This document shows positions 1,953 through 7,351 of a DNA stretch of 64,000 bases, piece by piece. The stretch comes from Scenedesmus sp. PABB004. Taxonomy: Eukaryota. Positions within the stretch are counted from its first letter, which is position 1, and each line of letters starts with the position of its first letter. The notes beneath the pieces are model-generated. The model ran no database searches and had not been told where the DNA came from. It worked only from the letters and a program-made list of their open reading frames with translations. Location of the stretch: contig JABVCE010000047.1 of the NCBI GenBank assembly GCA_014905635.1, forward strand, positions 1 to 64,000, given 5' to 3'. A program made the position numbers and the translations under genes.

Positions 1953-4900
1953 ATGGCCGCGCACGCCGACCTGTCGGCGCTGCTCGGCGACCAGCAGCCG
2001 CCCAGCCTGGCGGCGCTGGAGGCGCTGCAGGCCCAGCTCCACGGCCTGATCGTGCAGCACCACGGCGCCGCCGCGGCGGCGGGCGTGCTCGGCCGGGCAC
2101 TCGCTGGCCTGCTCCCAGGCCAGGCGACGGCGCCCGCCGCCGCCGCGAAGCCGGTGCCGCCGCCGGGGCAGGCGGCGCCGCCGGCCAAGTCGGTGTCGTT
2201 TGGCGACGTGACGGTCGCCCAGTTTGAGGCGCCGCCCGAGGCGCCGCTCGGCGCGGCCTCGCGCGCGCGATCAGCGAGGGCAGCAGCCTCGGGCGCAGCT
2301 CCTCGGCGGCGAGCGAGCTGAGCGACTCTGGCAGCCAGGCGGCGTCCGACGCGAGCAGCAGGAGCCGCCAGCGCTGGCAGCGCGCCGTCGCGCACGTGCT
2401 GGCCCGCACCACGGCCGACCCCTGGGCCTCGCGCCGGCTGCACGCGCTGCCGATGGAGGTCGCGGTGCGGCACCGCTACACCGCCGCGGGGCGGCACTGG
2501 GTCAAGGACACCGGTGCGCGCCCCTGCCCCTGCCCCTGCCTGCCGGCGCCGGCGGCGCCACGCAGCGCGCGCCCCGCGCCCCGCCCTGCCGCCCCGCCGG
2601 CCGCGCCCCGCCGGCCGCGCCCCGCCCCGCGCCGCCCCCGCGCCGCCGCCCCCACGTCGCCCCCCCCCCCCCATCACCCCCGCCACCCCCGCCCGCAGTG
2701 CTGGTGCGCATGGAGGGGCGGCCCTTTGCCGCGGGCGCGATGCGGGAGTGCTACGCCCTGAAGAAGCTCTCCACCTTTTCGTCATCCGTCGCCAGGCGCG
2801 TTACGCGCGTGTGGACAGAGGGACAGGGGGAGAGGGATGGGGAGGGGGGGGGGGGGGGCGCGGCGCCCGGCAGAACGCGCGGGCACGGCGCGACACGCTG
2901 CGCGCCGAGGCGCCGCCGCGGCGCGCGCAGGGACTGGCGTCAGGCGCACAACTTTGTGGCCAAGCGCTACAAGCGCCCCGTGAGGCTACACAGAGCGCGG
3001 GGGGGCGGGGGGGGGGGGGGGTCGCTGCTCTGCGCGCGCTCACGCCAGCACACGCCACAGCACACGCACGCACGCGCCCACGTGGCCCCCGCCCCCGCCA
3101 CGCCCGCCAGGTCGACCGTGGCGTGTACTTTGCGGACGTGGTGCTGCAGATGGATGCAAAGTACCTGGGTGCGTGTGGGTGACGTGTGCGTGTGACATGG
3201 GTGTGTGACGTGTGCGCGTGACATGGGTGTGTGCGTGGGACATGTGCGCGTGAATGTGCGTGGCACATGTGTGTGCGTGCCTCCGCCGTGCGCCCCCCCC
3301 CCCCCCCCCCCCCACACACACACACTGCCCCCCCCCCACACACACTGCTCCCCTAAACCCTAAAACCTAAAACCTAAACCCTCCCCCCCCCCCAGGTGAC
3401 GCCTACTCCAAGATCCCCGGCGTCCCCAAGAAGGTCGACTTTGTGCAGGCGGCGCTGCTCGAGTGAGCCAGGCCGCGCCGCCGGCCGCGCGGCACAGCCC
3501 CAGCAGCAGCTGGGCTGCCCCGATCGGAGGAGGAGGGGGGAAGGGGCATGGGGCAGCGCCGACGCGGGGGCCCTGCGCGCGGCGGCGGCGCGGCCGCGCG
3601 CTGAGCGGGCCCCTCGCCGCCGCGGCCACGCCGCGCGCAGGATGCGCGACCGCCCCGGCCGGCCCGTGCTCGCGGTGGAGCGGCTGATCGAGGGTGCGCG
3701 GCACGCGCGGCGCGCGGCGGCCGCGCCGCGGCCGCCGGCTGCGCCGCCCGGCCCCGCCGCGCCCCGCTCCACAGCAGCCAAGCCCGCCCGCCCGCCTCCT
3801 ATACACACCACCCCCCCCCCACCCCCGCAGGCGCGTACGTCAAGTACAACAGCAACAGCGGCTACGTCGCAGCGCCGCCGCTGCCGGGGCCCGACGCCGC
3901 CGCCGACGCGGCAGCAGGCGCCGCCGCCGCCGCCGGCGCGGAGGGCGGCGGCGGCGGCGGCGGCGGCGCGCTGCTGCACAGCCCGAGCACCGTCGCGGCG
4001 GAGCTCGCGCTGCGGCACACGCCGCAGACGTTCTCGCACTTTACGTTTGAGTTCACCAAGGCGCGCGACCGCGACGCGCGGCGCCCGCCTGCTGGGCGGC
4101 CCGCGCGCCGCGCCCCGCGCCCCGTGGCCCGCGCCCCACCCTCGCGCCTGAACCCCGCCCCTCAAAACGCGCCGCGCACCCCCCGCAGGGCGCCGCGCTG
4201 TGCGTCGACATCCAGGGCGTCGGCGACCTGTGAGCCCCGGCGGGGGGCGGCGGCGCGCGCGCGGCGCCAGCCCGCGACGCGCCCGTGGGGTGCTGGCGTG
4301 CCCGCCGCCTCAGCCCTTGCATTCAAACCAACCCGCCGCATCCCCCCGCCCCCCTACTCTCCCTCCTCCCCCCTGCAGGTACACGGACCCTCAGATCCAC
4401 ACCCTCGATGGCACCGGCTACGGCGACGGCAACCTCGCGCTGCGCGGTGCGCGCGCGCCCGCGCCGGCGCCCCGGCCCGGCGGGCCCGGGCGGCCGCCGC
4501 GGTTGCTGCAGCCTCGGCGCGCCGCGCTAGCTCTCTGCCCCCCCCCCCTCCCTCCCTGACCCCTGCTGCCACACCCAAAATCCACACGCGCCCGCGCCCG
4601 CCCCCTGCCCTGCGTGGCCCGCCCCGCCGCACCCGCCAGGCATGGCGCTGTTTTTCCGGACCCACGAGTGCAACCCGCTCTGCGGCGAGCTCGGGCTGCG
4701 CCCGTTTGCGCGCTGCGCGCAGGACGTCGCCGCGCAGGGCTACGCGAGCGCGGGCAGCAGCTCGGACGCGAGTGGCACGCTCTTCCGCAGCTTCGGACGC
4801 CACACCAGGTGCGCGCGCCGCGCGGTGGCGGCGCGAGCGACGCCGCGCGCTGCGCGCTGCGCGCCGCCCGCTGCGGCGCCGGCCGGGCCCGCCGGACGCG

Positions 4901-5417
4901 GCGCCACGTTGCCGCCGCCGCCGCCGCCGCAGCGTGGCGGACCGCCTGCTCGCGCAGCGCGCCGCGGCGGCGACGCGCGGCCCGGTGCACGGCACGGACG
5001 CGCTGCTGGCGGCGCTGGAGCGCGTGCCTGCGGCGCCCGAGCCGGACGCGCTGGTGCACTGGGAGGTTGCGCGGCTCTACGCTGAGACGGTCACGCTGCC
5101 GGAGCTGCGGCCCAACGAGGCGCGGCGCCGGCGGCCCTGGGGCGCCGCGCGGTTCAGGGGGCGCGCGCACGCGTGCCCTCACGCCGCGCGGCGGCGGGCG
5201 CACCGCGGCCTCACGCCCCCCGCCCCTTCCCCGGCGCCCGCCGCACGCCTGCAGGACCCCGACGACGCGCGGGTGGGCGGGCTGTTCCACCTGCTCACAG
5301 CTGCGGCGCGCGGCGTGGCGCTGGCGCAGCTCGTGCTCGCGTGGTGAGGCGCCGGCCCGCCGGCCCGCAGCGCCGCCCGCCGCGACGCGACGCGCTGGGC
5401 GCACGCCGACACGCGCA

Positions 5418-5450
<33 letters not shown>

Positions 5451-6527
5451 TGCCTGCAGCGGGCACATGGGCCTGCAGCCAAACTCCACGCAGCTCGCGC
5501 ACCTGCTCACGGAGGCGCGGCGCAGCGGCGACTTCACGCCCGCGCCGCGCCTGGCGCTGCGCTACACGCAGCTCGCGGCCGAGCGCGGCGTGCTCGGCGC
5601 GGCGGCGGCGCTGGGGCACGCGTACGCGACCGGTGCGTGCGTGGCCGGGGCGGCGCACGCCAGCCGCCACGCGCCCTGGCGCCGCTCCCCCCCCCCCCCT
5701 GCCCCTCACACACGCGCACCACCCCCCCCTCCCCCCCCTCACACACACACACACACACACGCGCACGCGCAGGCGGCGGCGTGGGCGAGGGCCTGCTGAC
5801 GCGGCCGTACCCCGCCCACGCGGCGCGCTGGCTGCGCGTCGCGCTCGGCCAGCCGCCCGACGGCGGCGGCGGCGGCGACGGCGAGGACGAGTTTGGCGCG
5901 CTGCCCGACGGCCTCAACCCGCGCAGCGGTGGCGGCGCGCGCCGCGGCGGCACGGCGACGCCGCCGCGCGGCGGCACGGCCACGCCGCCGCGCGGCGGCG
6001 GCGGCGCGCCGAGCCCCGCCCCGGCGTTGCGCCGCGGCGGCGCGGGGTGCGTGAGCTTCCGCGCCGCGCCCGCGGGCTCGCCGTGCGCGCTCGGCGACGA
6101 CGGCGTCGCGGTGGGCAGCCTCTTCACGCTGGCCGACCAGCTCTCGGCCGCTGCGACCGCCGCGCTCGCGGCGGCGCGGGGCGTCTTTGACGACGCGGCC
6201 GCCGAGGAGGCGCGCCTGCTGCCGGGCGGCGGCCGCGCGCGGCACGAGCTGCTCGCGGAGCTCGCCGAGCTCCTGCTCGCGGGCGGCGCCGGCCCGGAGC
6301 CGGCCGACCCCGGCGCGGCAGAGGCGGGCGGCGGCGGGAGCGAGGGCGGCGGCGCGCCTGACAGCGGCACTGCGCCGGCGCTGCTGCCGGGCCTCGCGCC
6401 CGACGCCGCCGCGGCCGCGGCGCTCTTCACCGAGGCCGCCGAGGCCGCGGCCGCCGCGGGCAGGGGCAAGGCCAGCGCGGCGCTCTGGGAGCGCGCCGCC
6501 GCGGCCGAGGCCGCCGCCGACGAGTGA
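1953..6527 (+). CDS. EEF2K: Alpha-kinase of the eukaryotic elongation factor 2 kinase type with C-terminal SEL1-like helical repeats (about 15 exons)
   Basis: Spliced motifs: DPWASRRLHALPMEVAVRHRY; PFAAGAMRECYALKK; NFVAKRY; YFADVVLQMDAK; VERLIEG-YVKYNSNSG; TPQTFSHFTFE; VDIQGVGDL-YTDPQIHT..GDGNL; MALFFRTHECNPLC (Zn site). Tail [27 protein letters not shown]. Start uncertain; apparent frameshift near 2250. Confidence 0.92.
3351..3382 (+). repeat. Interstitial telomere-like repeat (CCCTAAA/CCTAAAA, about 4 copies) at an intron 3' end
   Basis: ccctaaaccctaaaacctaaaacctaaaccct, followed by poly-C and the CAG acceptor. Confidence 0.65.
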
Positions 6528-6857: not shown

Positions 6858-7351
6858 ATGAGCAATCGGGCGATGTGCGCGGTGGCGCTGCTGCTTCTTC
6901 TAGCCCTCACCAGGTCGGGCGCGCTGCGGCGGAGCCAGCAGCGGCGGCGCCAGGCGGCGGCGGCAGCTGCGCGCGCCTGCCAGGCTCACCCCGCACGCCC
7001 GCCGCCCCTGACCGCCGCAGCGCCCACGCCGCGGCGGTGCTGGCGCGCGAGCCCAAGGCGGTCACGCCGCACGGCGAGCTGCCACTCTGCTCGGCGCAGC
7101 GCACGGCCGACGGCACGTGGCGCTGGGGCGACGAGGCGGCGCTGCTGGCCTGGGAGCGCAGCCAGGGCGCGGCGGCGGCGGCGGGCGTGGAGCGCTGCAC
7201 GGGGCTGGAGAGCTCGGCCGCGGCGCCGCGCTGCTGGGCGGGCGACGGCAGCGTGTACAGCGGGCGGGTCTTCGCCGAGCTGAGCTGTTTCTCCGAGGCG
7301 CCCAACTGCTGGACCAACCCCGACGGCACCGAGGCGTGCGTGGGGCGGTGA
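6858..7351 (+). CDS. Small secreted Cys/Trp-rich protein of unknown function (2 exons)
   Basis: Exon 1 (6858-6913) is a signal peptide, MSNRAMCAVALLLLLALTS. GT-AG intron 6914-7020. Exon 2 has 6 Cys (LPLC, ERC, PRCW, LSCF, PNCW, EACV). TGTAA at 7366. Confidence 0.75.

Follow-up and report, generated by a model that had tools for sequence, protein, structure and literature searches.

Human eEF2 kinase (eEF2K; PDB 7SHQ, 8FNY, 8FO6, 9OCW; PMC9258954) is laid out as a calmodulin-targeting motif (CTM), a regulatory element (RE), a kinase domain, a loop and a helical tail. In the available portions of PMC9258954, W85 and I89 are assigned their roles in the CTM, and changes to the spine at F138 and R148 are held possibly to yield non-functional enzymes. 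Higher plants are without eEF2-kinase activity (PMC7324750). In the chlorophyte Chlamydomonas reinhardtii, EEF2K has been named as Cre17.g721850 (bioRxiv 10.1101/310102; PMC6463030), and eEF2 phosphorylated at Thr57/59 rises on TOR inhibition, by 4.75-fold on AZD8055; in the available portions of bioRxiv 10.1101/310102 the phosphosite is not localised to Thr57 or Thr59, nor tied experimentally to EEF2K. Calmodulin receives no mention in the main text of the Chlamydomonas EEF2K paper, our literature search turned up no description of an algal eEF2K's calmodulin elements, and the available portions of PMC12303099 and PMC8807479 contain nothing on an algal or plant enzyme.

Kinases of the eEF2K type, with kinase domain and tail, are also found in protists, either in print (Phaeodactylum, Thalassiosira) or by protein name (Cyanophora, Leptophrys, Pycnococcus, Salpingoeca). 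Most carry a D-P-W/Y element, and one large clade has leucine or phenylalanine at the W85 position. The dictyostelid MHCKs (MHCK-A in the PDB; P0246 of Tieghemostelium) resemble the algal protein considered here in their alpha-kinase fold and in having the K/R/T phosphate pocket, but they have WD40 domains, sit on a separate branch, give no match to the SEL1-like tail, and lack any W-x13-15-W motif that an animal profile can find.

The DNA analysed here, referred to as the window, is a stretch of 64,000 nucleotides from Scenedesmus sp. PABB004. It had been predicted to encode an animal-type eEF2K with an intact calmodulin switch, presented as a novelty for a green alga. That novelty does not hold: the protein is already deposited as ‘Eef2k [Scenedesmus sp. 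PABB004]’ (NCBI KAF8055109.1), Chlamydomonas EEF2K and eEF2 pThr57/59 were published in 2018, and diatom eEF2K is published as well. A green-algal eEF2K is thus in print and adds little as a headline. What is new, at the level of sequence, is the combination of retained putative calmodulin-binding residues with neighbouring control elements that differ in a manner typical of green algae.

Results and discussion

The eEF2K gene at 1953-6527 (plus strand, as are all features below) is a real gene, made up of 14 exons. Spliced from 2273 onwards, these give one uninterrupted reading frame encoding 758 residues. The 13 introns measure 116-227 nt, every donor reads G[TC]G[AC]G (three introns are GC-AG) and every acceptor CAG. 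The kinase domain begins at the end of exon 1. Exon 2 (2699-2795) holds the P-loop, F168 (=F138), R174 (=R144) and, at 2755, A178 in place of the spine arginine R148. Exons 3-6 (2931-2979, 3111-3168, 3396-3462, 3641-3693) supply K202 (=K170), K224 (=K192), K238 (=K205), D241 (=D208) and L264 (=Y231). Exons 7-9 (3831-4060, 4189-4229, 4379-4446) include a 42-residue Ala/Gly insert and the N/D loop, with R328/T330 (=R252/T254), H336 (=H260), the catalytic base D350 (=D274) and L357 (=L281), and exon 10 (4640-4808) encodes the Zn ligands H388, C390 and C394 and the end of the kinase. All catalytic and Zn residues are kept, as seen in the equivalents of R144, K170, E229, K238, D274, Q276, D284, H260, H312, C314 and C318.

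The deposited protein (P0001) scores 155.6 bits with the alpha-kinase family PF02816 (cut-off 21.3) and, among PDB sequences, matches human eEF2K at E 1e-75 and MHCK-A at E 3.5e-32. In a kinase-only tree (LG+G4), 50 eEF2K-type rows separate from nine other alpha-kinases at 100/99, although the bootstraps of this tree had not settled. Pfam finds neither a WD40 nor a vWA domain in P0001, and it does not group with dictyostelid MHCK; no vWA match was shown among 143 representatives scanned, and the tree is therefore without vWA alpha-kinases. Judged from its sequence, the protein is an eEF2K orthologue: the MHCK-type reading, which the original prediction had named as the alternative, is rejected by the E-values, the tree, the topology test (greens with named MHCKs, p-AU 0.0013) and the presence of the helical tail.

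The expected substrate site and the putative activator occur in the same genome. The eEF2 of Scenedesmus retains Thr56 (Thr57 counting Met), as the prediction had asked to be checked. Its calmodulin is canonical, with the coding of the C-lobe split over exons; the W85 pocket is kept, as are 20 of the 21 eEF2K-contact residues given in the available part of PMC9258954, with lysine at Arg90.

The CTM (2375-2398) comprises W113 (=W85), V117 (=I89) and V120, the likely third anchor, and is followed by the RE (2417-2434), D127-P128-W129 (=D97-P98-W99), with R132 replacing F102. The Trp codons lie at 2375 and 2423, where they had been placed in the original prediction. The pair does align with W85/W99, but its spacing is 16 rather than 14. 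A 52-residue piece (2357-2512) searched against 177,635 PDB sequences, with E up to 10, matched only two human eEF2K sequences (E 0.003), both tryptophans being aligned; an animal-only CTM profile gives P0001 just 8.3 bits. Across green algae, the W85 equivalent is tryptophan in 24/24 sequences (16/16 in animals), D97, W99, A164, K192 and D208 are likewise kept in 24/24, and L281 is leucine or isoleucine in 23 of 24 (21/21 in another alignment), with leucine in one of nine outgroup kinases. K192 and D208 also occur in non-eEF2K kinases (5/9 and 4/9), so they are not diagnostic. Human eEF2K and the alga have F155 in common too.

The pocket that receives W99 is altered. Of its residues P98, F138 and V168 are kept, whilst F102R, R148A and Y231L are changed. 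At the 148 position alanine is found in 23/23 greens versus arginine in 63/63 others (protist eEF2K-type kinases, unlike the greens, keep R148 in 92 of 96 rows), and position 102 is arginine in 22/23 greens versus phenylalanine or tyrosine in 55/63 others. These changes mark a variant of eEF2K and do not exclude the protein from the family, the pocket being a feature of the human structure. R132 may stand in for the R148 of other lineages in the W99 pocket, as a compensatory swap.

The regulatory loop differs in a similar way. T426 (=T348; ACG at 4777) and R429, both on exon 10, form the T-L-F-R motif 24 residues past the kinase-terminal phenylalanine (4705), a spacing that is 22 in mammals; the position predicted for this motif is borne out, and the motif goes beyond chance. 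A T-hydrophobic-x-[RK] pattern, written after the sequences had been seen, occurs 20-36 residues past the terminal phenylalanine in 18/23 green homologues (7/11 in a thinned set), and shuffled sequences give a mean of 1.4 and a maximum of 7 in 5000. T426 is aligned to T348 in one alignment and not in another. The K205/R252/T254 phosphate pocket is kept, but it is also present in 9/9 non-eEF2K kinases and hence not diagnostic; both this pocket and eEF2 Thr56 were rejected as marks of eEF2K. The greens have no aligned equivalent of the segment with the secondary site S500, and the long animal regulatory loop is likewise missing, with 52 residues from T348 to H527 in the alga and 179 in a mammal. 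Ten residues past the T348 equivalent lies S436 (4807), in an R-x-x-S-hydrophobic site; R-x-x-[ST]-hydrophobic stands exactly at T+10 in 13/23 greens (shuffle mean 0.7, maximum 5). S436 may be where TOR/S6K-type kinases exert an inhibitory effect, in place of the longer loop of animals.

The switch can therefore be called intact only in part. W85, D97, W99 and K192/D208/L281 are kept, and so are the pT348 pocket and a T-x-x-R like that at T348; R148A, F102R, Y231L, the missing S500 segment and L/W at Y712/Y713 depart from the human enzyme.

A further difference from human eEF2K, besides Ala/Gly inserts, is a two-helix hairpin near the N terminus (2007-2108; P0001 residues 19-52). A profile from eight other greens matches P0001 at E 4e-11, and AlphaFold places helices at 19-37 and 39-52 (pLDDT 80-88). 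Among 323 proteins searched, the profile matches 19 greens (eight of them the seed), six other relatives and no named animal. The hairpin has no Pfam match, an atlas search with that of P0004 gave no usable match, and a complex prediction of residues 12-56 against 100-612 gave no answer (score 0.00).

To the observed orthology, residue conservation, substrate site and calmodulin we can add mechanistic steps modelled on the human enzyme. The C-lobe of algal calmodulin would grip W113 together with a face of the kinase N-lobe (K224, D241, L357), and D-P-W129 would pass the signal to the ATP site. T426, once autophosphorylated, would dock in the pocket of K238, R328 and T330, and eEF2 would be presented by the helical tail for phosphorylation on Thr56, which would slow elongation. 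The protein is probably an eEF2 kinase of a green-algal subfamily, present in one copy and inherited vertically; it would work broadly as the human enzyme does, and its dependence on Ca2+/calmodulin is likely. Alternatively, eEF2 could be phosphorylated by a kinase partly or wholly independent of calmodulin, or one that binds calmodulin yet is set by other inputs, the remodelled W99 pocket and the hairpin fixing or gating the spine. The near-universal R148A and F102R of the greens, the restriction of the hairpin to greens and six other relatives, and the short loop all fit such rewiring. We nevertheless think it unlikely, since the calmodulin-facing residues (W85, K192, D208, A164, L281) are invariant or nearly so and the W85 pocket of calmodulin is kept; if calmodulin did not bind, this near-invariance would be difficult to account for.

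Whether the kinase is ‘animal-type’ depends on the tree. The kinase-only LG+G4 analysis joins 14 greens to 17 holozoan-like rows at 100/97, and greens with the Cyanophora group are rejected (p-AU 0.024; 0.0012 with Pycnococcus added), as would be expected if the gene had been transferred between the holozoan and chlorophyte lineages early in their history, an origin that would make ‘animal-type’ literally true. However, with kinase and tail under LG+C20 and no outgroup, the greens join two other proteins (97/93) and not holozoans; those two also carry the hairpin, and a test on the kinase domain by itself does not reject their union with the greens (p-AU 0.083). Nor does the topology test reject greens as the deepest eEF2K branch (p-AU 0.18). 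The groups were defined after a first tree had been seen, from thin and mostly unnamed sampling, and with bootstraps unsettled we reject green-plus-animal sisterhood as established. Since that grouping vanishes under the better model, and eEF2K-type proteins are named in a glaucophyte, a rhizarian, prasinophytes and a choanoflagellate, across several eukaryote supergroups, ‘animal-type’ does not stand, and transfer appears distinctly improbable. A tail-region search for further green-type proteins gave 14 matches with no named streptophyte, and none is named among the best 120 of 1452 homologue matches listed, neither of which amounts to absence from streptophytes.

The frameshift foreseen near 2250 is present in the assembly. 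The first part of exon 1 (1953-2253) encodes the start, the hairpin and a low-complexity linker in the frame of ATG 1953, and the coding score in that frame holds up to about 2250; the second part (2254-2513) continues with a Ser-rich linker, the CTM, the RE and the start of the kinase N-lobe. A switch of frame fits best at 2250-2258, where either one base is missing or two are extra. The deposited model is identical over 835/835 residues to a splice of the window (1953-6523) in which 2189-2274 is cut as an intron. These 86 nt have a coding score of 34, compared with a maximum of 10 in 48 real-intron pieces, and the donor, GTCGGT, is unlike the other 13. We reject this intron as the favoured fix, and it seems an unlikely explanation. 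An assembly indel is most likely, and a real lesion more doubtful than either. No RNA dataset is listed as carrying this sequence, and the one freshwater DNA sequencing run contained short or repeat-driven pieces only, none bridging 2250. The deposited protein also continues past position 6527, where the stop ends, into a distinct frame further downstream, an extension we reject; the deposited model thus seems wrong at both ends.

Were the break real in the strain, the gene would be damaged, or read from ATG 2453, the next in-frame start, which lies 3′ of both Trp codons, to give a kinase without its calmodulin switch. In keeping with this, the break is in the assembly, coding scores on both sides argue against a rescuing intron, and no in-frame ATG occurs between 2228 and 2453. 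But neither the other 13 exons nor any of the splice sites show a defect, the hairpin upstream is conserved, and the gene is the sole good match in its own genome, so we hold this to be highly improbable. (A PF02816 search of that genome returned no match, but controls were equally silent and the gene consists of short exons.)

Exons 11-14 (4933-5119, 5255-5343, 5460-5632, 5773-6527; stop 6525-6527) encode a C-terminal domain of the SEL1-like type, wholly helical and interrupted by inserts of low complexity. The predicted helices are present in eEF2K order (VHWEV 5054, FHLL 5285, RHEL 6240, ALFTE 6420, GRGK 6459). An animal-only profile of this domain matches P0001 at E 5.8e-9 and none of nine outgroup proteins, and the best Foldseek match is human eEF2K (737 columns spanning kinase and tail, TM 0.74 by target), although the tail does not reach the Pfam Sel1 threshold. 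H527 and H554 are kept as H478 and H510, whereas Y712/Y713 are L823/W824, at positions that hold aromatic pairs in most greens. As eEF2 docks on the last helices of human eEF2K (PMC9258954, available portions), L823/W824, the long inserts and the missing Sel1 match might suggest an eEF2K-derived kinase with a drifted tail and another main substrate, but we consider this very improbable given the conserved tail order, H527, H554 and fold, the retention of eEF2 Thr56, and the phosphorylation of eEF2 reported for Chlamydomonas in the portions cited above.

Conclusions

We infer that Cre17.g721850 is orthologous to the Scenedesmus gene, by way of C. schloesseri and others, and volvocine homologues carry all the green-specific marks. 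It is possible, though we advance the idea only tentatively, that green algae hold a distinct eEF2K subfamily with a rebuilt calmodulin relay (arginine moved from 148 to 102, plus Y231L), one basophilic T+10 site and a hairpin of its own, giving a different Ca2+/TOR control of elongation that was lost toward land plants. The green eEF2Ks offer naturally occurring variants of the activation spine (R148A with F102R) and a minimal regulatory loop, and would allow a test of the human spine model. For Chlamydomonas, they raise the question of whether Ca2+ and TOR both govern elongation in a cell that photosynthesises; such control is reported to be missing in higher plants.

Identity and structure of the gene

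The alpha-kinase gene at 1953–6527 (+) encodes a true eEF2 kinase (eEF2K), and is already annotated as Eef2k in the deposited record (KAF8055109.1, hereafter P0001), a protein identical to this gene's product across exon 10. A PDB search with P0001 returned human eEF2K at E 1e-75 and myosin heavy chain kinase (MHCK) A at 3.5e-32, followed by other alpha-kinases (11 sequences with E ≤1). In a kinase tree of 59 rows, hand-picked from a 141-row set that contained no vWA kinases and drew on 105 of the 143 representatives, those covering 203 or more kinase columns, 50 eEF2K-type rows stood apart from nine others, a named MHCK included, at 100/99, and the green algae formed a clade of 14 at 98/94 with Tetradesmus nearest, bootstraps here being not fully settled. 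A grouping of greens with MHCK was rejected (p-AU 0.0013), which upholds the orthology originally proposed; the greens as deepest eEF2K branch are compatible with the data (p-AU 0.18). The C-terminal helices had been read as the SEL1-like tail of eEF2K, and this also holds: a profile made solely from 16 animal proteins matched P0001 (E 5.8e-9) but not one of nine outgroup kinases, and the AlphaFold model, based on an 86-row alignment and of mean pLDDT 72, matched human eEF2K over 737 columns with a TM of 0.74 by target and rmsd of 7.6–10.3. The P0001 tail did not reach the Pfam Sel1 threshold.

G+C is 77–84% along the whole window. Splicing of the window gives 14 exons that join, from 2273 to 6527, into a single open frame of 758 residues, in which each motif quoted in the original prediction was found in its place. 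The 13 introns span 116–227 nt and all donors fit G[TC]G[AC]G. GC–AG introns are frequent, with three in the kinase gene (2796–2930, 4061–4188 and 5120–5254) and another as the fourth intron of the eEF2 gene, after exon 4. Intron 4 of the kinase gene carries about four degenerate CCCTAAA units at an internal site (3351–3385, +), which we take to resemble the plant-type telomere repeat. With the first intron of P0001 itself, our splice equals P0001 at 835/835 residues, a comparison of prediction with prediction, not RNA. Six matches at its own locus and two weak ones elsewhere make the gene the sole strong match in its genome.

The deposited model seems to be in error at its two ends. The ATG at 1953 is out of frame with the remainder of exon 1, a break of consequence, since both Trp residues (W85 and W99) lie upstream of the next in-frame ATG (2453). 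We favour, with fair confidence, a small assembly indel at 2250–2258. The stretch 2189–2274 reads as coding with a frame switch there at a log-odds of 34, which none of 48 pieces of real introns reached (maximum 10), and L-A-R-A-I-S-E-G in the second frame resembles, by eye, the L-H-R-S-R-S-E-G that the Tetradesmus homologue has in this position. The deposited model instead removes 2189–2274 as an intron; this seems unlikely, as it would be the shortest of the gene, with an atypical donor (GTCGGT). A true lesion is less probable still; the sequence upstream of the break is real, because its N-terminal two-helix hairpin (P0001 residues 19–52, window 2007–2108) is conserved. K-S-V-S-F then V-T-V, within the stretch removed by the deposited model (2187–2225, +), resembles a PP1-docking RVxF motif; such motifs precede the calmodulin motif in just two of 22 other greens (Tetradesmus and Pyramimonas), so the likeness could be a coincidence.

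At the 3′ side of P0001, a splice from 6523 joins the kinase to a separate small frame (6858–7351, +) with its own ATG and signal-peptide-like start at 6858 and a likely intron; homologues end at the position of the stop at 6527, the end given in the original prediction. The Cys-containing exon of this frame (7022–7348) had no Pfam match. Upstream, a divergent frame (943–1326, −) would encode a small protein that has clusters of Cys and two hydrophobic segments; its Pfam matches are all weak (E 0.14 or worse).

The predicted calmodulin switch

Residues are numbered on the 725-residue mammalian protein P0100, whose letters agree with published labels (PMC9258954). All 24 greens (15 named chlorophytes or prasinophytes, and nine proteins without a name grouping with them) retain W85, D97, W99, F138, R144, A164, V168, K170, K192, K205, D208, R252, T254, D274, H527 and H554. 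Outgroup kinases also have K205, R252 and T254 (9/9), K192 (5/9) and D208 (4/9), so these are weaker signs; position 281 is L or I in 21/21 greens and L in one of nine outgroup kinases. The proposed T348-like site is supported by alignment A2, where T426 falls on T348 (T in 23/23 greens, T-x-x-[RK] in 18), and by an alignment-free count (18/23 against a shuffle mean of 1.4), although a second alignment does not pair them. Thr56 of eEF2, to which the original prediction had pointed, is retained as Thr57 counting Met, in A-R-L-T-D-T-R (locus L007, contig C24). The alga's own calmodulin (locus L017, contig C46; 149 residues) keeps 20 of 21 named contact residues, with Arg90 replaced by Lys. Human eEF2K is reported to be activated by the calmodulin C-lobe alone (bioRxiv 10.1101/2025.05.13.653565). 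The algal kinase is quite likely Ca2+/calmodulin-activated and probably acts on eEF2 Thr56.

The switch had been called intact, which holds for W85, D97 and W99 but not for all of their surroundings. The W99 pocket is described as P98, F102, F138, R148, V168 and Y231 (PMC9258954). Position 148 is A in 23/23 greens and R in 63/63 others (R is kept in 92/96 other eEF2K-side rows of a wider kinase alignment), position 102 is R in 22/23 greens and F/Y in 55/63 others, and Y231 is L in 23/24 greens. The arginine may have shifted from 148 to 102 as compensation. All these changes come from one clade and so count as one event, not many. P0136 has the same R102/A148 pair, yet falls elsewhere in a FastTree analysis and has no tail match, possibly a second origin of the swap.

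The T348-to-H527 loop is 52 residues in this kinase against 179 in a mammal, and the S500 segment was not found in it in the alignment of greens. R-x-x-[ST]-hydrophobic lies exactly at Thr+10 in 13/23 greens (shuffle mean 0.7, maximum 5), a pattern set after viewing; S436 of P0001, in such a site, is a candidate S6K-type input. Among 323 proteins searched, the hairpin was matched in 19 greens (eight being the seed) and six proteins without a name, with no named animal; it had no Pfam match. Y712/Y713, which have a role in eEF2 recognition, are L/W in P0001. eEF2 is reported to dock on the last helices of the tail (PMC9258954).

Relatives and origin

The label 'animal-type' does not stand. Among 20 proteins looked up, eEF2K-type kinases with the tail occur in Cyanophora, Leptophrys, an Ancyromonas-containing cluster, Pycnococcus, Pyramimonas, Pterosperma and Salpingoeca. 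Kinase-only trees group greens with holozoans at 100/97 (bootstraps not fully settled) and reject greens with the Cyanophora group (p-AU 0.024; 0.0012 after adding Pycnococcus). Once the tail and LG+C20 are used (34 rows, 472 columns, no outgroup), the greens instead join two proteins without a name (97/93), which have the hairpin in common with them, so a special animal tie is not established. The simpler view is of an ancient gene of eukaryotes, lost in a patchy way and perhaps accompanied by old paralogues.

The prasinophyte eEF2K P0173 (Pycnococcus) lies apart from the main green clade in every tree and gave no hairpin match, hinting at a second paralogue or transfer. The transcript P0183 encodes an eEF2K-type kinase with an EF-hand pair (residues 7–69) fused N-terminal to the W...DPW motif, a natural analogue of C-LiNK, an engineered calmodulin-lobe fusion reported to be constitutively active (bioRxiv 10.1101/2025.05.13.653565). 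P0199, from a cluster with a Tisochrysis member, is an alpha-kinase in which ankyrin repeats follow DPW; the tree places it on the eEF2K side. An eEF2K-type clade of P0212, P0223, P0226, P0232, P0234 and kin keeps DPW/DVW and the tail, has L/F at the W85 position, and offers candidate calmodulin-independent eEF2Ks; some members have weak Tudor/Agenet matches.

To our knowledge yeasts lack eEF2K. That plants lack the pathway agrees with the reported absence of endogenous eEF2-kinase activity in higher plants, although wheat eEF2 is a substrate of mammalian eEF2K (PMC7324750), but not with green algae: Chlamydomonas EEF2K (Cre17.g721850), the published counterpart of our gene, was named by Werth et al., who report that AZD8055 raises eEF2 Thr57/59 phosphorylation 4.75-fold (bioRxiv 10.1101/310102; restated in PMC6463030). 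Their main text does not mention calmodulin; the supplements may list kinase sites. Diatom eEF2K is also in print (PMC7408324, PMC2827801). A search that took in little of the subscription literature turned up no publication dealing with the calmodulin elements or the activation spine of an algal eEF2K.

In conclusion, the observation behind the original prediction is confirmed and its interpretation partly supported. What is new is that the greens share specific changes around the switch, which might, rather tentatively, mark a rewired green eEF2K subfamily.
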